Shown here: one piece after another, positions 1-59,625 of the stretch
How the letters are laid out: every line of letters starts with the position of its first letter
Position numbering within the stretch: position 1 is the first letter of the stretch
Source of the DNA: a phage
Reading direction: 5' to 3' (one strand)
Sequence record: PZ445442.1
DNA length: 64,000 nt
Program-made: the position numbers and the translations under genes
Notes under the pieces: generated by a model
Told to the model about the DNA's origin: nothing
Seen by the model: the letters and a program-made list of their open reading frames with translations, nothing else
The model's database searches: none

Positions 1-1118
1 TTTACATAGACCCACCATTCAATACTGGAAGGGCTTTTGAGCACTACGATGATAGCCTTGAGCATTCCATTTGGCTGGGCTTAATGAGGGATAGGTTAGA
101 AATAATTCGTAATCTTCTAAGTGATGATGGGGTAATATTCGTTCACTTAGATGATTGCGAAATGGCGTATTTAAAAGTTTTGATGGACGAGATTTTTGGT
201 CGTGCAAATCAGTTAAATACCATATCGATGACCACAAATTCCCCTTCGGGATTTAAGGCAACAGGAGCCACAGTTTTCTCCACAGCAAACTTTTTGCTTG
301 TATATGCAAAAGATCACACCCAGAAACCGCTTAACAAAATCTATATACCTAAAGGGTACGATACAGGATATAACAAATACCTATTAAACCCGGATGACCA
401 TTATAAAAATTGGACGTGGTGCAGTATTGCCGATGCGTTTGCAAAGGCCAATGGCTATAAGGATGCAAAAGAAGCCAAGAAAAAACTACCTGACACATTC
501 GATGATGAATTAGCACAATTCGCAATTGATAATGCAGAACGTGTATTTCAATCTGTTGCAATTGGTGGTGGTGCTAAAATAAAGAGAAAAGAAACTATCG
601 AGAAGTCAAAGAAAGATAGGGATAAGGTTTATGTACATCCAAATGAGGATGTTGAAGGATTTTATATCGCAAATGGTAGGCAAATGGTCTTTTACTCCAA
701 TAGGCTTTTGGAAATTGACGGTGAGATGCAACCTGCGGAACTAATAACTGATGTTTGGACAGACATTGGTTGGAATGGAATAGCAAATGAAGGCGGCGTT
801 AGTTTCAAAAATGGGAAAAAACCAGAAGCGCTTTTGAAGCGGATTTTCGAAATGTGCACGCGAGAAGGCGATTTGGTATTGGATTCATTCGGTGGTTCGG
901 GAACTACTGCTGCTGTAGCTCATAAGATGAAAAGACGCTGGATCTCAATCGAGCTAGGTGATCATTGTCATACCCATATTATTCCGCGCTTGGAAAAAGT
1001 GATCGATGGCGAAGATCAAGGTGGTATTTCTAAGTCTGTAAACTGGCAAGGTGGTGGTGGCTTCCGTTATTACAAACTTGCCCCGGCCTTAGTTGCGAAA
1101 GATAAGTCTGATCAATAA
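1..1118 (+). CDS. DNA methyltransferase, beta-class (N6-adenine or N4-cytosine), 5'-partial
   Basis: Reading frame is open from the window edge (frame of track ORF 84..1118); motif IV DPPF at nt 3-30 (YIDPPFNTG) precedes motif I FGGSGTT near the C-terminus, the order typical of beta-class amino-MTases. Confidence 0.7.
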   Translation, partial: YIDPPFNTGRAFEHYDDSLEHSIWLGLMRDRLEIIRNLLSDDGVIFVHLDDCEMAYLKVLMDEIFGRANQLNTISMTTNSPSGFKATGATVFSTANFLLVYAKDHTQKPLNKIYIPKGYDTGYNKYLLNPDDHYKNWTWCSIADAFAKANGYKDAKEAKKKLPDTFDDELAQFAIDNAERVFQSVAIGGGAKIKRKETIEKSKKDRDKVYVHPNEDVEGFYIANGRQMVFYSNRLLEIDGEMQPAELITDVWTDIGWNGIANEGGVSFKNGKKPEALLKRIFEMCTREGDLVLDSFGGSGTTAAVAHKMKRRWISIELGDHCHTHIIPRLEKVIDGEDQGGISKSVNWQGGGGFRYYKLAPALVAKDKSDQ

Positions 1119-1131
1119 AGAGTACAATCAA

Positions 1132-1437
1132 ATGATGAAACGTTATAAACCATACACTTTTGAAATCGATTTTGAACTTGACGATATGTTCACTGTGGAA
1201 GCTCAGGCAGTTGTCCAGTTGCCAGACCCAGAGTGTCGTGATTCTGATGTTGACTATTATGGATTTAGACAGATCACTGATGTGCATGTTTACCACAACG
1301 GTGAAGAGGTGGACTTCCACAAACTGCCAAACGATATGCGCCACTCAATTTACAAACGTGCAGCCCGTGAACTAGAGTCCTATCTTGATGCAGCGACGAC
1401 AGCAGCTGCATTTGCCGAAGAAGTGGGAGGTTTCTGA
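1132..1437 (+). CDS. hypothetical protein
   Basis: Track ORF 1093..1437 trimmed to first ATG (MMKRYKP...); start uncertain. Confidence 0.45.
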   Translation: MMKRYKPYTFEIDFELDDMFTVEAQAVVQLPDPECRDSDVDYYGFRQITDVHVYHNGEEVDFHKLPNDMRHSIYKRAARELESYLDAATTAAAFAEEVGGF

Positions 1438-1832
1438 TGATTACAGATGTGAAGATTGTCCAATACCACTTAACCAAGTTGGAAGATGCTGAGAAAGAGC
1501 TTGCAGAAGTTCTGAATAGTGGATATACTTTGCTATCATGCGCCTGCTCAGACACCTACGCTGTGTGGACACTTATCAGGAAGGAAGAGCCTGCAGGGAT
1601 CTTGGTGCCAAACCCTAAGATTATTAGTGAGGTGGATGACTACCCCCAGGACGGCCTGCCAGAAGGCTGGGAAGTATGGGAAGGTGGTGAAAACCCTGCA
1701 CCAGGTAAGTGGGTAAAATACAAACTACGTAGTGGTGCACAGTACGCTGACTACTCTGATGACCTAGACTGGAGTCATTCTTCACCAGGATCATCTGCAA
1801 GTTCATATGATATCGTTGCTTTTCAGGAATAA
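1437..1832 (+). CDS. hypothetical protein
   Basis: Track ORF; ATG overlaps upstream stop (TGATGA), suggesting translational coupling. Confidence 0.5.
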   Translation: MITDVKIVQYHLTKLEDAEKELAEVLNSGYTLLSCACSDTYAVWTLIRKEEPAGILVPNPKIISEVDDYPQDGLPEGWEVWEGGENPAPGKWVKYKLRSGAQYADYSDDLDWSHSSPGSSASSYDIVAFQE

Positions 1833-1844
1833 GGAGAGGGTGTT

Positions 1845-2327
1845 ATGTCAGATTTTATGTGGAAAGTAGGCTATGCCACTCCTGAAATGTGCGAGGCTTG
1901 CTTTGTGAAAATAGGCCGCGAGGATATCGACAAAGTGATCCTTAAGTTTCGTGATGTGGCTGTGATCGGCAACCGAGTGCTTAAGCACTTAAAGAATCTG
2001 AAGCTCACCAAAAAGAAGTTCTTCGGGCTTTTCGAAGAGAAAGTTGATGCTTGGACCCATTGCATTCAGGAAGCTAAATCTCACTACAGTGCTATCGTTA
2101 CTCCAGAACGGGTAGCTAAGATGGAAGGATTCATTAACAGCACAGAATTTGAGTGTCTGAAAGCTGCACTCGATAGTTATCCGAAATGCCTTAAGCACTT
2201 GGACAAGTATGCAGAAAAGGATGGGGAAATGTATCTAACCCTGGACGCATATTATGAGATGCAAGAAATTTTAAATTTAGATTTGACATTGGTATCCACC
2301 GAGTATACAATAGGTATCCGGGTTTAA
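1845..2327 (+). CDS. hypothetical protein
   Basis: Track ORF; AAGGAGAGGG Shine-Dalgarno about 6 nt upstream of ATG. Confidence 0.6.
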   Translation: MSDFMWKVGYATPEMCEACFVKIGREDIDKVILKFRDVAVIGNRVLKHLKNLKLTKKKFFGLFEEKVDAWTHCIQEAKSHYSAIVTPERVAKMEGFINSTEFECLKAALDSYPKCLKHLDKYAEKDGEMYLTLDAYYEMQEILNLDLTLVSTEYTIGIRV

Positions 2328-2333
2328 CACTAG

Positions 2334-2360
2334 GCCCTGCCCGAAAGGGTGGGGCTTTTT
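2334..2360 (+). terminator. rho-independent terminator (GAAA-tetraloop hairpin + T5)
   Basis: GCCCTGCCC-GAAA-GGGTGGGGC stem (with G-U pairs) followed by TTTTT; identical hairpin recurs at about 14611. Confidence 0.6.
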
Positions 2361-2378
2361 GCATTAGGAGACAGCAAA

Positions 2379-3140
2379 TTGAAATTTATCTACAAAGAAC
2401 ACTACCACAAAGGTGTTGTGTGGAGTCTATTTGACGGGTCTGGTGGTGCAGTCATTGACTGGGCAAAAGCTGGGTACCTGTGCCTGTGCTTTAATGCAGA
2501 AGGCGCTGATCACGGCAGTTATGCAGAGGTGATCACCGATCATCCCAACATTCACTATGTGGACTATTGGATTGACCCGTGGTTCCCTCAGGAAACTTTT
2601 TGCATGTATCCGGCTCCAGATTTTATTCTTGCATTTCCTCCGTGCACGCATTTAGCGGTATCAGGTGCTGCACATTTTAAGAAAAAGCTGGCTAAGGACC
2701 CCATGATCCAAATTAATGCTGTAAAGGATGCTCGGGTTGCGGAAGAGCTGGGAGAGATTTACGATTGCCCGTGGCATGTAGAGAATCCTGTGGGTGTTAT
2801 GTCCACACTGTGGCGCAAACCTGATTACCGTTTTCACCCTTCGGATTATGGCGGGTATTTACCGGAAGATGATGTAAACCCATGGTTTCCTGAATTTATA
2901 GCTCCACGTGATGCCTATCCAAAAATAACTTGCGGCTGGATAGGTAATGGATTTATAATCCCAGCCACAAAACCTGTCCCGCAAATAGTTGACGCGGTTA
3001 GTGGGTACTCCATGCAACACGCTAAGCTGGGTGGAAAGAGTGCAAGAACGAAGATGATCCGAAGCCTCACACCACGTGGCTGGGCAAAAGCTGTATTCTT
3101 AGCAAACGAGCCTGTAGTAAGGAGAAGGGCCAATGGTTGA
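2379..3140 (+). CDS. putative DNA (cytosine-5)-methyltransferase-like protein
   Basis: Track ORF 2349..3140 re-started at TTG 2379 (AGGAG SD at 2365-2369; the GTG at 2349 lies inside the terminator hairpin). Motifs resembling C5-MTase I (LFDGSGGA), IV (FPPCTHLAVSG) and VI (HVENPVG) in the right order; protein is short for this family. Confidence 0.4.
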   Translation: MKFIYKEHYHKGVVWSLFDGSGGAVIDWAKAGYLCLCFNAEGADHGSYAEVITDHPNIHYVDYWIDPWFPQETFCMYPAPDFILAFPPCTHLAVSGAAHFKKKLAKDPMIQINAVKDARVAEELGEIYDCPWHVENPVGVMSTLWRKPDYRFHPSDYGGYLPEDDVNPWFPEFIAPRDAYPKITCGWIGNGFIIPATKPVPQIVDAVSGYSMQHAKLGGKSARTKMIRSLTPRGWAKAVFLANEPVVRRRANG

Positions 3141-3804
3141 CTGGAGCAAGTATTTCACCTACAGTGACGGCAAACTGTTCTGGGCGTACACTGCAAAAGC
3201 CGGAAGGGGCAGGGTTATACATTACGCAGGTGAGGAGGCCACAGGCACAGATAAAAATGGCTATAGAGTGATATATGTGTCAGGTGTTGGGAGTGTTCGT
3301 AGGCATAGAATAGTTTGGGAGATGCATTACGGGGAGATACCTGAGGGACTTGTTGTGCGGCACAAGAACGACATAGCGGGCGATGATAGGGTAGAGAACT
3401 TAGTCCTAGGTACACAGGGCGATAATGCACGAGACATGATCTACAGTGACAAACTGAGCATTAACAATACCTCAGGGTGTAGAGGTGTACGCTACCATAG
3501 AGGCATAAAAAGATGGATTGCATCTGTTGGAGATATATACTTAGGGTGTTTTAAGACAAAAGAGGCTGCAATTGAATGCAGAAAGTTATGGGAGAAGGGA
3601 AAATTCGTCCCGCAAGAGTTGGATGTTAGAAACACTAGCGGTGTAACAGGGGTGTTCTATGTGCCGAGCTCTGGAAGGTGGAGAGTCAGAGTGCAAAGCG
3701 GCAAAAAGAGAAAGAGCTATGGCACTTACAATACTTTAGAAGAAGCAAAAACTGTAAGGGATAGAGTGATGAAAGAGATTGAGGAGTTTAAAGATGGGGA
3801 ATAA
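3133..3804 (+). CDS. HNH homing endonuclease (HNH + AP2-like DNA-binding domain), free-standing
   Basis: HRIVWEMHYGEIP...VVRHKNDIAGDDRVENL HNH signature and GVRYH..WIASV...LGCFKTKEEA AP2-like motif; sits between the MTase-like gene and primase-helicase. Confidence 0.7.
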   Translation: MVDWSKYFTYSDGKLFWAYTAKAGRGRVIHYAGEEATGTDKNGYRVIYVSGVGSVRRHRIVWEMHYGEIPEGLVVRHKNDIAGDDRVENLVLGTQGDNARDMIYSDKLSINNTSGCRGVRYHRGIKRWIASVGDIYLGCFKTKEAAIECRKLWEKGKFVPQELDVRNTSGVTGVFYVPSSGRWRVRVQSGKKRKSYGTYNTLEEAKTVRDRVMKEIEEFKDGE

Positions 3805-5930: not shown

Positions 5931-8354
5931 ATGAGTATGTGGTCGTTCGATTTTGAGTCATCCGGTTTGCTGGAAGACCCAGATCTTTATTATCACTGCG
6001 GTCTGTTTAAAGAGCTGAATAAGAACCGTTTTATGCTGTTCCTTCCTCTAAATGACCGCACACACTACTCCGAGGAGGATATAGAAAAGGCTAAGAACTT
6101 CATTCTGGCAAAGAAAACTCTTTATAAAGATTTTGAAGTTCGCATAGCAGATTTTTCGGAGTTGGAAGGTTGGCTTACAGGCAATTCTGACTGGTCACCA
6201 ACAGCTTTGAACTGCCATAACTGCTACAGTTATGACTTTATGCTGATGGAAAGATTATCCGGTATTCATTTTGATATGTTCCGTGATCCTAAATGCATGG
6301 GGACTATCAACGATCACCAGGTTAACCTGTTTGATACGTTGGCGATGAGCCGAATCTTGTGGCCTGATCGCCCTTTACCAAAAGGTTGTCCGGACTCTGT
6401 ATTCAACCCGGTTACTAAGAAAATGCAGCCTGTTGGTCCCCACGGCCTTATGGCATGGGGCTACGCCCTTGGTAACCAGAAAGTTCAAATTGATGACTGG
6501 CGCGATCTTCCGTTGTGGAAGTATGTGGATCGTGTATTCGAGGACGTTATCATCCAGGAGCTGCTCTGGAAAGAGCTGGTAGCGGAATCAAAAGGTGTAT
6601 TCTACGGCAAATCTGACATGCAGAACTTTATGTACGATCCTGCCAAAGAGAAGCCGAAAGGGTTCAAGAAGATCACCTGGAAGAACGCATTACGCCGAGG
6701 CATGCTGCAGCACTTCCTGATGGAGCTGCAGGCCCGTCAGGGTGTGTATTTTGACATAGATGGAGCTATTGCTTTACGTGACCGTTGCGATGCGTGGATG
6801 AAAGAAATCGCTGATCGTGTTGAACCACAACTACCTTTAAAAGAGTTGTCAATGTCTCAGCGGCCCAAGTTCCCTGAAAAGCCGTTTAACCAAGATGGGA
6901 CAATCTCCAATAATGGTTGGAAATGGTTAAAAGATAAGCTTGGCTATCCTGTAGATATGAGCGCTTTAGAGTTCAAAGCCCCGCCTAAGCGAGCATTTAC
7001 CTCCACAGGGGATGTCAGCAAGATGGGGATAAAATGGTGTGAAGAGATGGGCTGCAAAGACCCTGATAAGATGGCTGATTTCTTGAGAGGCTATATTAAG
7101 GGCACTTCCACACCACAACCTTTACCTAAAGAGCTGATGGATCAGGCAATAAGTGATCTGCAGCAGAAGCGAATGCCTGACTGCAAGATACCTATGAAAA
7201 TCAGCAATCAGGACGACATTAAGCGGTATCTGATCAGTGCTGGCTGGCTCCCGACGATGTGGAGAACTAAGGATGTAACTAAAGACAGCAAGAAGAAAGC
7301 CCTACCTGATGCAGATGTTGATGCACGAGTATATGCATATATGGACGAGCTTTTAGAGTCAGAGTATTGTGATCTGATTATCAACTTCTGGAACAAAACT
7401 GATGCTAAGTTCCAGACAACCGTGCACAAGTTCCGAAGCTTTCCTAACTCCGAAAGGATTAAAAAGGAAGTATTCGGGAAAATACGTAGAAAAGCTAGGG
7501 CACTTATTACTTCTCCGCAACTGAAAGATACGTTTGGACACCTATGCCCGAATCTTGAAAAATTGAACGGAGAGATGGCTAAAGATATCGTCTTGTGGTT
7601 ATCTTTGCGAAACCGCAGATCGGTACTTGATCCAATCAAGGAGGATAAGGTTGATACTGGTCTTCTTAATCACCCACGTTTGAAGATTGACCATAAGCTT
7701 CCTGCTAAAAGCTCTGGATTAACAAACACTTCCAGACAGAAACACAGTATTTGTGCAAACATGCCTAAACCATCTCCTAAAGTGGTCATGGGTAAAGAGA
7801 TGCGTAGTCTGTGGGGTGTTCCTCCAGGATACTTTGAGATCGGTATTGACGGGTCCAACTTAGAGCAGCTTATCGGGGCTTGGGGTGCCTTTGAGTTCGA
7901 CAACGGATTGTATTATGATGTTGTAAGTAACGGGGACGCACACCAAAACAATGCTGAAGCATATACAAAAGTGGCAGGCAGAGAGGTGTCTCGTAACGAC
8001 GGTAAACCTATCACGTATGGGGTTATGTATGGGGCACAAAAAGATAAAGTTGCAGATATGCTGGACATCTCTCCAGAACTGGGGCAGAGAGTAATTGATG
8101 CTCTCTGGGATGCCAACCCAGGTCTTAAGGGGCGCAAAGAGGATCTGGAGAAATTCTGGGAAGCAACAGGTAAGAAATTTATCTACTCTTTTGACGGGCA
8201 TGCCATTTGGACCCGCTCTAAACACTCTTTGCTTAATGCATATCAGCAAAATGGCGGTGCATCGTTGTGCGACTTGGTCGGAATCCTCATGCACCACCAA
8301 ATGGTGAAGCGTGGATGGTATGATGAAGGTGTTCGTCGTATTATTTATTACCAT
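5931..8354 (+). CDS. DNA polymerase, family A, exon 1 (3'-5' exo + pol motifs A and B)
   Basis: Exo I FDFESSG at N-terminus; motif A-like GIDGSNLEQL; motif B KPITYGVMYGAQ; ORF halts at ...RRIIYYH just before motif C. Exon ends on T8354 (group I 5' splice-site U). Confidence 0.85.
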
Positions 8355-40059: not shown

Positions 40060-40063
40060 AATT

Positions 40064-40255
40064 CAGCCTCGCATAGACATAATCACTATAAACAGGCAAA
40101 CAATGAATCCGAATGCCACGCCACCCATAAACGTTAATATTGATGCAATCATAGTCAATCAGCCTCGCATAGACATAATCACTATAAACAGGCAAACAAT
40201 GAATCCGAATGCCACGCCACCCATAAACGTTAATATTGATGCAATCATAGTCAAT
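40064..40255. repeat. perfect tandem direct repeat, 2 x 96 bp (plus 9-bp start of a third unit)
   Basis: Unit CAGCCTCGCATAGACATAATCACTATAAACAGGCAAACAATGAATCCGAATGCCACGCCACCCATAAACGTTAATATTGATGCAATCATAGTCAAT appears twice back-to-back; intergenic on the minus strand. Confidence 0.8.
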
Positions 40256-43950: not shown

Positions 43951-44265
43951 CTACCAGGTTACTGTCAAGTAGGCAACCGTGTTATTTTTCTCTGGAGAGA
44001 TGCCGACAACATCTACCTGCAAACCTCCTGCCCTTAAATCTCCAACAATGTGCGGGAAGTAATCTGAGAGATGCGACGGTAGATTTATCGAAAATCCGCA
44101 TCCCAGAAAGCCTGCTAACGCTTTATTTTGTATCTCCCCTACAATCGCATCATAAATGGAGTTAAGCTCGTCAGGGAGCGTTACAGGACGTTTTAGCGCT
44201 AACTGGTGTAATTTGTCCTTAGCACTCATTTTCATTTCAGGTCTACCTCTGGGGGTGCCAACCAC
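43951..44265 (-). CDS. hypothetical protein
   Basis: Track ORF. Confidence 0.5.
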   Translation of the reverse strand: MVGTPRGRPEMKMSAKDKLHQLALKRPVTLPDELNSIYDAIVGEIQNKALAGFLGCGFSINLPSHLSDYFPHIVGDLRAGGLQVDVVGISPEKNNTVAYLTVTW

Positions 44266-44765
44266 ATAAATGGCGGCAAGTCTAAACGGTTTTTCTTATC
44301 CCACACAAAATATGCATATGCTTGCCCGTCAGTTCTACCATTTGATTGAAATGATGGACGCTTAGATATTGTGATCACAGTAGTAGGTGCATTATCAAGC
44401 CACCATTCAAATCTGGCTTTGCTTTCCAGAAAATTAAGACGCAAAAGCATAATAACTACGTCAGCATCTTTCAACGCCTTGTCTACGAACTCACGGGCCA
44501 GACTGTATGGTGGGTTGGTGATAATACAGTCAACATGGTTGTATTCTGTATTCAGATAGTCAACACCTTCTTGGATTTCTCCCCATGCAGATCCTAACGG
44601 CATACGGGAGTAGAACACACCTGAGGCACTATTCCTGCAAGGCTCTAAGTAGGTCCAGTCTTCTGGGAACGGAATAAGGTCATACAGCCCTTCTGCACAC
44701 CACTCCGGTGTCACATACTCATCGTAGGCGTTACGTTGTTCATCAGGTTTTCTAGCACAAGTCAT
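44232..44765 (-). CDS. DNA N6-adenine methyltransferase (small NPPY-type)
   Basis: Catalytic motif IV IITNPPY; compact 177-aa protein. Confidence 0.65.
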   Translation of the reverse strand: MTCARKPDEQRNAYDEYVTPEWCAEGLYDLIPFPEDWTYLEPCRNSASGVFYSRMPLGSAWGEIQEGVDYLNTEYNHVDCIITNPPYSLAREFVDKALKDADVVIMLLRLNFLESKARFEWWLDNAPTTVITISKRPSFQSNGRTDGQAYAYFVWDKKNRLDLPPFMWLAPPEVDLK

Positions 44766-58385: not shown

Positions 58386-58844
58386 TTAGAAGTTTGTTTT
58401 TACACGTCCCTTTTCATCAACCTCGTTGTTGGCTAGAAGCGTTACAAAGTCTGTGAAACGGACATGAAGAACTCTTTTCTTATCAAGGTATCCTAAAGCC
58501 ACCCCTGAGAAATTTAGCATCAAAGGGGCTAAAGAAGCTCTGGCACTGAAATGCTGTTGTTCTACCCTTCCAACACCCTTAGTGTAGGATGGGTTAAGAT
58601 TGTAAGTTCTGAATCCCAGTTTTGTTGGAGCTTTAGAATTAAAAACAACTTTATAGCGTTTCTTACTCAACTTATGCTCCAGGATAAGCATTCCCTTATC
58701 ACCCTTGATAAGTTGAAAATCTGTAAAGTGCTCTTTTAATACGAAAGGTAGTGCCAGTCCCATCGCCTGCCCCCTTTGTACCGCTGTCTCACCAAAAGCT
58801 TTTGCATCAGTAAGTTCTTTGGTCAAGTCTATGCTTTTGATCAT
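58386..58844 (-). CDS. hypothetical protein
   Basis: Track ORF. Confidence 0.5.
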   Translation of the reverse strand: MIKSIDLTKELTDAKAFGETAVQRGQAMGLALPFVLKEHFTDFQLIKGDKGMLILEHKLSKKRYKVVFNSKAPTKLGFRTYNLNPSYTKGVGRVEQQHFSARASLAPLMLNFSGVALGYLDKKRVLHVRFTDFVTLLANNEVDEKGRVKTNF

Positions 58845-59625
58845 ACCTAGTCTCCAAAATGTATTGTAGTTCTTTCTTACCTATACTCTTCATTCCGGCA
58901 GTCTTACCTGCTTCTTCTTGAAAAGAAGAATAGCATTCAGCAAACACTCTGTCAACACCGTCAACTAAAGATTTTATGAAATATGTTGATTCTTCAGATT
59001 TTGGGTCATCCTCCCCCAATACTTTTCCAGCATTATACCCAACACGTCTTACACAGAAGTCGTAGTCATCTGGAGTGCTAAAAGAAAATAACTTATTCTC
59101 CCCAATCTCTACAGGATCCCTGTTGCACGCCTTTTTCTCCCAAATTTGGAAAACACACGGCACGTCATAAGGTTTGCCATTAAGTAGAAACGAGTTCTTA
59201 GGGCACCTTTCACTGTAGACAAGGTGCATCGACATGTCCAGTTTGTTTGCAAAAAATATTTTTTCAAATGTCCGTGGCAAGATGAAGGCTATAGCCCCTC
59301 CAAGCTCTAGCAATGATGCACAATGGTTAAAGAATTTGCAAGCTAAAGATGAATTCTTGCCAAATGGTGGGTTACCTATGAAGACATCTGCCTTGGGATG
59401 CACCTCCAAGAAGTTTGCCTGAATGCACGGTGTTGGTCCTTCAAATTCAGGATCTGGTACTAGATCGTAAGACAGTATCTCTGAAAATAGTTTTGAAAAA
59501 GAACCCCTTCCAGCAGAAGGCTCAACGTATGCACAATTTCCATACTTATCTTTTACTTTACCAACAAGATATTCTGCATACTCAGGGTTTGTGTAATATT
59601 TGTCGTTGGACTCTTTCTTGCTCAA
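58807..59625 (-). CDS. DNA N6-adenine methyltransferase, gamma-class-like
   Basis: YYTNPEYAEYLV, motif I VEPSAGRGSF and motif IV FIGNPPFG; track ORF 58807..59655 starts inside a terminator hairpin, so the start is tentatively moved to in-frame TTG 59625 after GGAGG. Confidence 0.6.
   Translation of the reverse strand: MSKKESNDKYYTNPEYAEYLVGKVKDKYGNCAYVEPSAGRGSFSKLFSEILSYDLVPDPEFEGPTPCIQANFLEVHPKADVFIGNPPFGKNSSLACKFFNHCASLLELGGAIAFILPRTFEKIFFANKLDMSMHLVYSERCPKNSFLLNGKPYDVPCVFQIWEKKACNRDPVEIGENKLFSFSTPDDYDFCVRRVGYNAGKVLGEDDPKSEESTYFIKSLVDGVDRVFAECYSSFQEEAGKTAGMKSIGKKELQYILETRYDQKHRLDQRTY

Follow-up and report, generated by a model that had tools for sequence, protein, structure and literature searches.

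That phages use orphan methyltransferases against host restriction is textbook knowledge. The classical examples are the Dam enzymes of T4, T1 and P1 and the multispecific C5 enzymes of the Bacillus phages SPbeta and phi3T, for which both specificity and protection have been demonstrated. The four methyltransferase genes (MTase1 to MTase4) described here resemble these systems in being phage-encoded, in the lack of an endonuclease partner and in their presumed protective self-methylation, but plating of the phage that carries them reveals no protection against EcoRI or EcoRV. The same four genes occupy the same positions, with 87-100% DNA identity, in rV5 and other members of Vequintavirus (naswa, DrSchubert, FV3, APECc02), where the orthologues are labelled as adenine methyltransferase or type III Mod, (site-specific) DNA or cytosine methylase, and N6-adenine methyltransferases.

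The window, that is, the whole 64,000-nucleotide stretch of DNA that was analysed, is a 100% match to MZ501062.1, the record of Escherichia phage EmilHeitz (Bas49), an rV5-like phage of the genus Vequintavirus. All four genes carry a methyltransferase annotation in that record and are already known, being annotated publicly, as are their counterparts in over 100 genomes of related phages. With their predicted classes, they are:

MTase1: 1..1118 (partial), plus strand; beta-class, type III Mod-like amino-methyltransferase, represented by the 3' 1,116 nt of the gene
MTase2: 2379..3140, plus strand; 253 aa, bas49_0074, annotated as 'Dcm-like'; C5-cytosine-methyltransferase fold
MTase3: 44232..44765, minus strand; 177 aa, bas49_0177; minimal gamma-class amino-methyltransferase
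MTase4: 58807..59625, minus strand; 272 aa, bas49_0198; gamma-class, TaqI/BseCI-like amino-methyltransferase

The original prediction of four methyltransferase reading frames with their characteristic motifs at these positions is borne out, with MTase1 cut by the window edge, and the classes it proposed (beta for MTase1, the C5 fold for MTase2, gamma for MTase3 and MTase4) appear to be essentially right. All four genes are orphans: Pfam shows no restriction-endonuclease partner among their neighbours, the sole endonuclease found being an HNH-AP2 homing endonuclease. The annotation of the 139,980-bp EmilHeitz genome includes no methyltransferases besides these four, and a six-frame scan for [DNS]PP[YFWH], covering open frames of at least 70 aa, recovered the three amino-methyltransferases (MTase1, MTase3 and MTase4) along with two matches in unannotated ORFs. 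Three of the four proteins, MTase2, MTase3 and MTase4, miss the curated Pfam thresholds; neither MTase2 nor MTase4 has a significant match in Pfam and NCBIfam, and single-sequence searches of all three against solved structures yielded nothing usable, family profiles being required. Their classes were assigned, accordingly, from alignments of the families, from profile searches and from predicted folds. A literature search turned up neither a methylome nor an enzyme assay on any of MTase1 to MTase4 and, for rV5-like phages, no methylome or restriction-digest data, the rV5 genome paper reporting only an XbaI digest; thus, the activity of the four proteins, the modified base, the site and the choice between DNA and RNA as the substrate are all inferred.

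It appears probable, and we hold this view with good confidence, that EmilHeitz is a typical rV5-like phage with four orphan genes for putative DNA methyltransferases, which provide, most likely, narrow protection but no broad shield. Under this scenario, MTase2, MTase3 and MTase4 would perform S-adenosylmethionine-dependent methylation of replicating phage DNA, each at its own short motif, with specificities that are likely narrow, whereas MTase1 would be a type III Mod-like beta-class adenine methyltransferase encoded in an accessory cassette that is disrupted here by one extra T. The most likely benefit would be protection against those RM or BREX-like systems whose sites match the motifs of the enzymes. 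We regard this as an ordinary gene set rather than a broad shield because one of the genes is frameshifted and because EmilHeitz is heavily cut by common RM systems.

The genus-wide core: MTase2, MTase3 and MTase4

MTase2, MTase3 and MTase4 are conserved in 116-121 Vequintavirus records, with 87-100% DNA identity (MTase3 in 119 of the 119 related records), and are core genes of the genus whose conserved catalytic motifs, so far as the alignments tell, are intact. MTase2 is adjoined by primase/helicase and polymerase genes, and MTase4 by a DnaQ-like exonuclease, that is, by replication and nucleotide-metabolism modules. Dam methylation acts at the P1 pac site, and the conserved methyltransferases of EmilHeitz could likewise serve the phage's own biology, such as the timing of replication, packaging or gene expression, rather than defence. 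The location of the genes in these modules and their strict conservation in the genus, even though they are unprotective in published assays, are compatible with such a role. However, an early or replication-module position is equally expected for protective methylation of nascent DNA, and we consider this possibility unlikely.

MTase2 contains the motifs FDGSGG (I), FPPCTHLAVSG (IV, with the catalytic Cys) and HVENPVG (VI), followed by a C-terminal KLGGKS..RSLTPRG stretch, with the protein ending some 20 residues further on. Motifs I-IV align to those of DNMT3B, HaeIII and HhaI, Cys89, Glu135 and Asn136 are invariant among 28 diverse homologues, and the C5-methyltransferase fold is recognizable in the protein. 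Nevertheless, MTase2 has no match to Pfam PF00145 even at E<=10, and two of its homologues pass that profile only narrowly (24.7 and 25.4 bits vs 22). Unlike M.HhaI, M.HaeIII, the DNMT3B domain, the prophage protein 3g7u and CmoX (8yf3), MTase2, at 253 aa, has a very short variable region, and the family to which it belongs, with more than 3,550 members, is compact and appears to lack a recognisable motif X and a normal recognition domain. The canonical motif X (GN[AS]V) was not located in MTase2; an hhalign comparison of the family with M.HhaI reached 1.8% probability, covered motifs I-IV alone and placed neither motif X nor the cofactor-determining position, which is Asn304 in HhaI and Arg350 in CmoX (PMC12783734).

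MTase3 and MTase4 are, probably, putative N6-adenine enzymes. In MTase3, the motifs are DEYVTP (X), LEPCRNSASG (I) and TNPPY (IV, within IITNPPYSLA); motif I is degenerate in its clade, with CRNSASG in place of GxG, and the target-recognition domain is nearly missing. Among 312 homologues, T19 and T83-N84-P85-P86 are invariant. MTase3 matches PHROG 799 'DNA methyltransferase' at 8e-67, and the top solved structure for its family profile is M.TaqI (1.1e-4), ahead of further N6A DNA methyltransferases, type I HsdM and, at a small distance, Erm, whereas its scores against EcoRI_methylase (20.1 vs 26.4), Dam (19.2 vs 28.1) and TIGR01712 (NCBIfam phage_N6A_met; 16.1 vs 97) stay below the thresholds. 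MTase4 carries DKYYT (X), EPSAGRGSF (I) and GNPPFG (IV, within FIGNPPFGKN), all invariant in the family alignment, and, after motif IV, a C-terminal domain some 110 aa long; it scores 16 bits against Pfam Eco57I, below the 25.3 cut-off, also matches PHROG 799, and has homologues that carry the precomputed family PF26055. Compared with M.TaqI, M.BseCI, CamA and the MmeI module, with which they share 15-18% identity, both proteins are small (177 aa for MTase3 and 272 aa for MTase4 vs 382-751 aa) and fall under the curated Pfam cut-offs, and MTase3, unlike those enzymes, is essentially without a recognition domain. We rejected the notion that MTase3 and MTase4 are recent paralogues: their BLASTP similarity is marginal (E = 0.026) and confined to the surroundings of NPP[YF].

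The best structural matches to the core of MTase4 taken by itself are rRNA m6A enzymes, and it is conceivable that MTase4, and possibly MTase3, acts on RNA, methylating adenine or guanine in rRNA or tRNA, and not on DNA. The matches of MTase4 to RNA enzymes, however, span just the 140-170-aa Rossmann core, whereas those that extend over about 85-90% of the protein, including the C-terminal domain, are M.BseCI, MmeI, M.TaqI and CamA only, all of them DNA N6A enzymes. Together with M.TaqI as the top profile match of MTase3 and the assignment of both proteins to a PHROG of DNA methyltransferases, this makes an RNA substrate quite unlikely.

The accessory Mod-like gene and its frameshift

In frame 3 of the window (3-1118), MTase1 reads YIDPPFNTG...DSFGGSGTT, with DPPF (motif IV) occupying codons 3-6 of this frame and FGGSGTT (motif I) near the C-terminus; motif IV precedes motif I, which is the beta-class order. 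This fragment matches Pfam N6_N4_Mtase (PF01555) with 139.1 bits (cut-off 26.7, E=2.8e-40), and an intact orthologue does so with 145 bits. The intact orthologue also matches the structures of type III Mod proteins, those of Helicobacter pylori (6k0w, 1.3e-28) and EcoP15I (4zcf, 2.2e-24), with which it shares the order of DPPF and FGGSG and to which both its core and its N-terminal region with 'LELTWxGK' align, residues 2-88 corresponding to Mod residues 52-138. Unlike these Mod proteins (618-644 aa), MTase1 comprises 441 aa when intact, is frameshifted in EmilHeitz and is an orphan: no res gene (SF2 helicase plus nuclease) lies beside it, its neighbours being small hypothetical proteins without a Pfam match, and the helicase encoded nearby is PIF1-like, not a Res subunit.

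The true ATG of MTase1 lies at record position 64474 (window -208), so that the window edge cuts the gene. Upstream of the edge, at record positions 64598-64603 (window -84 to -79), EmilHeitz has a run of six T that breaks the reading frame, which then ends in a stop behind codon 43, whereas in relatives a run of five T leaves an intact 441-aa ORF. The six-T allele is found in one of 81 records, EmilHeitz itself, and the other 80 have the plain in-frame T5; removal of one T in silico restores a 441-aa EmilHeitz ORF that differs from those of the relatives by 3-9 aa. Because of the extra T, normal translation cannot yield full-length MTase1 in EmilHeitz. The GenBank CDS bas49_0070 begins at an ATG at window position 84, 3' of the catalytic DPPF, and thus leaves the motif out; being a shortened prediction within a gene that has a frameshift, it deserves a disrupted flag or a re-check. 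An assembly error could account for the T6 run, although the record states 130x Illumina coverage. Since 80 of the 81 records have the plain in-frame T5, we rejected a programmed frameshift as the main reading of this gene. The lesion yields UUU-UGA, however, which would let tRNA-Phe slip by +1 and pair perfectly again, and there is therefore a remote possibility that a small amount of full-length MTase1 still arises. Full-length MTase1 genes occur in 86 records, and about one quarter of the relatives have none; in HeinrichReichert, the gene is cleanly missing, exactly from its start codon to the next one. MTase1 is an accessory gene or cassette.

Restriction sensitivity and the case against a broad shield

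The original prediction was that the four enzymes jointly methylate many sites and so protect the phage broadly from host restriction. One genome holding four enzymes of three classes invites this view, as does the established role of orphan phage methyltransferases, and an anti-restriction role has been argued along the same lines for BME3, a related phage (PMC12210895). The published plating data, which cover the six RM systems of the BASEL panel, contradict it. The EOP of EmilHeitz on EcoRI is 3e-4 to 1.6e-3, a roughly 1000-fold restriction, and on EcoRV its plating is below detection; on EcoCFT_II and EcoPI, the EOP is 0.12-0.5 and 0.11-0.77, respectively (PMC8594841). The EmilHeitz genome carries 20 GAATTC and 49 GATATC sites, so that self-methylation does not let the phage escape EcoRI or EcoRV, two systems whose sites it contains. 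The authors of that study termed the whole phage group 'exceptionally susceptible' to RM (PMC8594841). Nor does an intact MTase1, which is frameshifted in EmilHeitz, give relatives any extra resistance: DrSchubert, RudolfGeigy and WalterGehring, in which the gene is intact, are equally or more RM-sensitive than EmilHeitz (PMC8594841). Finally, seven GC-rich 6-bp palindromes are entirely missing from the EmilHeitz genome (0 vs 4-12 expected), a strong avoidance of the kind expected of unprotected sites, and EmilHeitz appears to rely also on the avoidance of many 6-bp palindromes. As far as the six RM systems in the panel go, then, broad protection is largely refuted, and we consider it very unlikely overall.

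Among the BASEL vequintaviruses, EmilHeitz, with its frameshift, shows the lowest sensitivity to the type III RM systems, and both MTase1 carriers and one phage without MTase1 are sensitive; MTase1 status was rejected as the cause of these differences.

The original prediction had also named inactive remnants as one outcome that would overturn it, and for MTase1 this is true in part, given that the extra T splits the gene, that standard decoding yields no 441-aa protein, and that the annotated CDS is without the catalytic motif. Yet this lesion is a single base, present in EmilHeitz only, with the rest of the ORF intact, and MTase2, MTase3 and MTase4 are full-length, occur in essentially all relatives and have catalytic residues that are invariant in families whose sizes range from 300 to more than 3,500 proteins, so that loss of function across the set is highly improbable. 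The compactness of the large MTase2 family and its apparent lack of motif X and of a normal recognition domain leave room for a different chemistry, though this is a long shot: MTase2 might place a group other than methyl on C5 of cytosine, such as the carboxymethyl of Cx-SAM, as phage CmoX does; E. coli CmoA already makes Cx-SAM, and no CmoA gene is among the EmilHeitz annotations.

Narrow protection by an ordinary set of orphan methyltransferases thus remains the reading that we favour. For Vequintavirus, the inference that many methyltransferases mean broad restriction evasion is contradicted by the published plating data. The BASEL Vequintavirus set, in which MTase1 is intact, frameshifted or absent, is a natural series for assigning the specificity of MTase1.

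Four orphan methyltransferases of known kinds

The four methyltransferases of EmilHeitz (Bas49 of the BASEL collection, an rV5-like member of the genus Vequintavirus) are of known kinds: one is a beta-class orphan resembling type III Mod, one a compact C5 enzyme of phages, and two are small gamma-class amino-methyltransferases.

Methyltransferase genes in the window, with GenBank annotation
MTase1, 1-1118, plus strand, partial; type III Mod-like beta-class; bas49_0070, putative N6 adenine methyltransferase
MTase2, 2379-3140, plus strand, 253 aa; compact C5 fold; bas49_0074, Dcm-like C5 cytosine methyltransferase
MTase3, 44232-44765, minus strand, 177 aa; minimal gamma-class, NPPY; bas49_0177, putative N6 adenine methyltransferase
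MTase4, 58807-59625, minus strand, 272 aa; gamma-class, NPPF; bas49_0198, putative N6 adenine methyltransferase

Every motif on which the original prediction relied was found where it had been placed, and its four class labels hold on family and motif evidence, with three of the four proteins missing curated family thresholds. MTase1 scores 139 bits against Pfam N6_N4_Mtase (cut-off 26.7), and its intact orthologue in the related phage naswa resembles type III Mod over the whole length including the N-terminus, matching H. pylori Mod (6k0w, 1.3e-28) and EcoP15I Mod (4zcf, 2.2e-24). MTase2 has no Pfam match; its family comprises >3,550 proteins of 220-260 aa, many from phage-sized contigs, in which the motif IV Pro-Cys, the motif VI Glu-Asn and a C-terminal SLTPRG are invariant. 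The family of MTase3 likewise consists of small proteins, many from phage-sized contigs; TNPP, the core of TNPPY, is invariant in it, and motif X takes the form DxYxTP. The best solved-structure match of the family profile is M.TaqI (1.1e-4). In MTase4, EPSAGxGxF and GNPPFG are invariant. DNA is the more likely substrate of MTase3 and MTase4, and we infer for MTase2-4 a putative S-adenosylmethionine (SAM)-dependent methylation of phage DNA at specific motifs; our literature search for methylome or enzymological data on rV5-like phages returned none. In phage CmoX, the choice between SAM and carboxy-SAM is set by one position (HhaI Asn304/CmoX Arg350; PMC12783734). Because the MTase2 family has no recognisable motif X, and the equivalent of this position could not be placed, non-methyl transfer by these proteins might be entertained, speculatively.

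No further methyltransferase is annotated in the other 76 kb of the genome, and a motif scan of the annotated genes of the window yielded no additional (D/N/S)PP(Y/F) protein. No restriction-enzyme partner accompanies any of the four: the adjacent genes lack Pfam matches, and, two genes upstream of MTase1, the helicase gene encodes a PIF1-like protein and not a type III Res.

MTase1 as a disrupted cassette

The first 12 kb of the window are 100% identical to MZ501062.1 (record 64683-76682), and by a 25-mer map the window is collinear with that record throughout, the single exception being a tandem duplication at 40063-40254 (96-bp unit, 2.1 copies, 100% identity) whose unit contains bas49_0162 (29 aa, minus strand). 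The record has one copy, so the window departs from the deposited genome at one place; the duplication junction occurs as a contiguous piece in none of the best 10 of 91 matched records. Since the record lacks the duplication, the window position is obtained by subtracting 64682 from the record position up to 40158, and 64586 beyond.

The window edge truncates MTase1, which begins with an ATG at record 64474. The EmilHeitz sequence has six T's in the run ATATTTTTTGA, and translation then ends, after 43 codons, in D I F and a stop. With five T's, naswa, Phage 206 and JohannBauhin encode 441 aa without interruption, and the coding sequence is likewise uninterrupted in Inoa, DrSchubert and FV3; among 81 records matched by a 91-nt query spanning the site, only EmilHeitz has T6. 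Deleting one T in silico restores a 441-aa protein with 3-9 differences from its relatives. The lesion is either a single recent event or an assembly error, the latter despite the 130x coverage stated in MZ501062.1. Because GenBank starts the gene at the next ATG (window 84), downstream of the catalytic DPPF, the product as annotated would have no catalytic activity. The relatives being plainly in frame, this is not a conserved programmed frameshift; the lesion yields UUU UGA, where tRNA-Phe, on slipping by +1, would pair again without mismatch, and low-level read-through is conceivable.

Full-length copies of MTase2, MTase3 and MTase4 occur in 116, 119 and 121 related records, respectively, that is, in essentially every Vequintavirus, whereas MTase1 is accessory (full-length in 86 records, missing from about 26). 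The exact site of the MTase1 start codon in EmilHeitz is occupied in HeinrichReichert by that of the downstream gene (AAACG-ATG-AAACGTTAT versus AAACG-ATG-AGTAAAACC in EmilHeitz, upstream of and into window 1-1134), so that MTase1 is missing cleanly, from start codon to start codon. MTase1 thus has the behaviour of a cassette the size of one ORF, and both phages have a GC-rich hairpin, GGGGAGGCACTCCTCCCC, immediately 5' of the site. The final 8 nt of MTase2 are shared with an HNH_3 + AP2 homing endonuclease gene (3133-3804, plus strand). Of the related records listed, nearly all match MTase2 only up to 13-16 nt before its end, and the endonuclease gene therefore seems to be inserted variably, in EmilHeitz and a small number of other phages. 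Further ORFs for homing endonucleases lie within the genes for DNA polymerase (start at 5931) and class III ribonucleotide reductase, each annotated in two parts. Separately, 16-20 unannotated GenBank records titled 'Campylobacter phage' (MG0656xx) share 93-99% identity with E. coli vequintaviruses in all regions searched; probably, the host label is wrong or the preparations were contaminated.

Restriction sensitivity and the protection hypothesis

Adenine methylation within EcoRI or EcoRV sites blocks these enzymes. EmilHeitz is restricted by both, and its virion DNA is therefore unmethylated at those sites.

Efficiency of plating (EOP) of EmilHeitz, from published raw data (BASEL S1 Data, PMC8594841 supplement 7)
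EcoKI: about 0.6-1.2
EcoCFT_I: 0.7-1.25
EcoRI: 3e-4 to 1.6e-3
EcoRV: below detection
EcoCFT_II: 0.12-0.5
EcoPI: 0.11-0.77

The EcoRI and EcoRV values contradict the broad protective self-methylation that had been proposed from the gene set, an argument already in print, as protection by four methyltransferases, for the related phage BME3 (PMC12210895). The same sensitivity would speak against efficient, non-specific adenine methylation by MTase3, which has hardly any recognition domain. The genome contains 20 GAATTC, 49 GATATC and 214 AGACC sites; all three counts agree with the site table of PMC8594841, directly for AGACC and, for the two palindromes, at half the tabulated number.

DrSchubert, RudolfGeigy and WalterGehring, which carry MTase1, equal EmilHeitz in EcoRI/EcoRV sensitivity and exceed it in sensitivity to the two type III systems, and HeinrichReichert, without MTase1, is sensitive too (PMC8594841); MTase1 therefore does not explain the differences. 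Under type III EcoCFT_II, plating falls below detection in DrSchubert, RudolfGeigy and HeinrichReichert, compared with an EOP of about 0.1-0.5 for EmilHeitz (PMC8594841). Site counts are similar (EmilHeitz 293, DrSchubert 295), and methyltransferase content does not explain this variation among the BASEL vequintaviruses.

The whole EmilHeitz genome strongly avoids GC-rich 6-bp palindromes: CCGCGG, CGGCCG, CTCGAG, GCCGGC, GCTAGC, GGCGCC and GTCGAC are each absent where 4-12 would be expected, and CGATCG has a single occurrence where 14 would be. Neither GATC, with 702 sites, nor the hexamers that contain it are avoided. Avoidance of GC-rich palindromes is a signature of sites unprotected by modification.

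Taken as a whole, the reading of these genes as orphan methyltransferases of the stated classes stands, but they form no broad shield, and one of the four is disrupted. What the public annotation lacks is limited to the frameshift in MTase1, the wrong start called for that gene, and its presence or absence in the manner of a cassette; overall, the finding of four methyltransferases represents biology already known.
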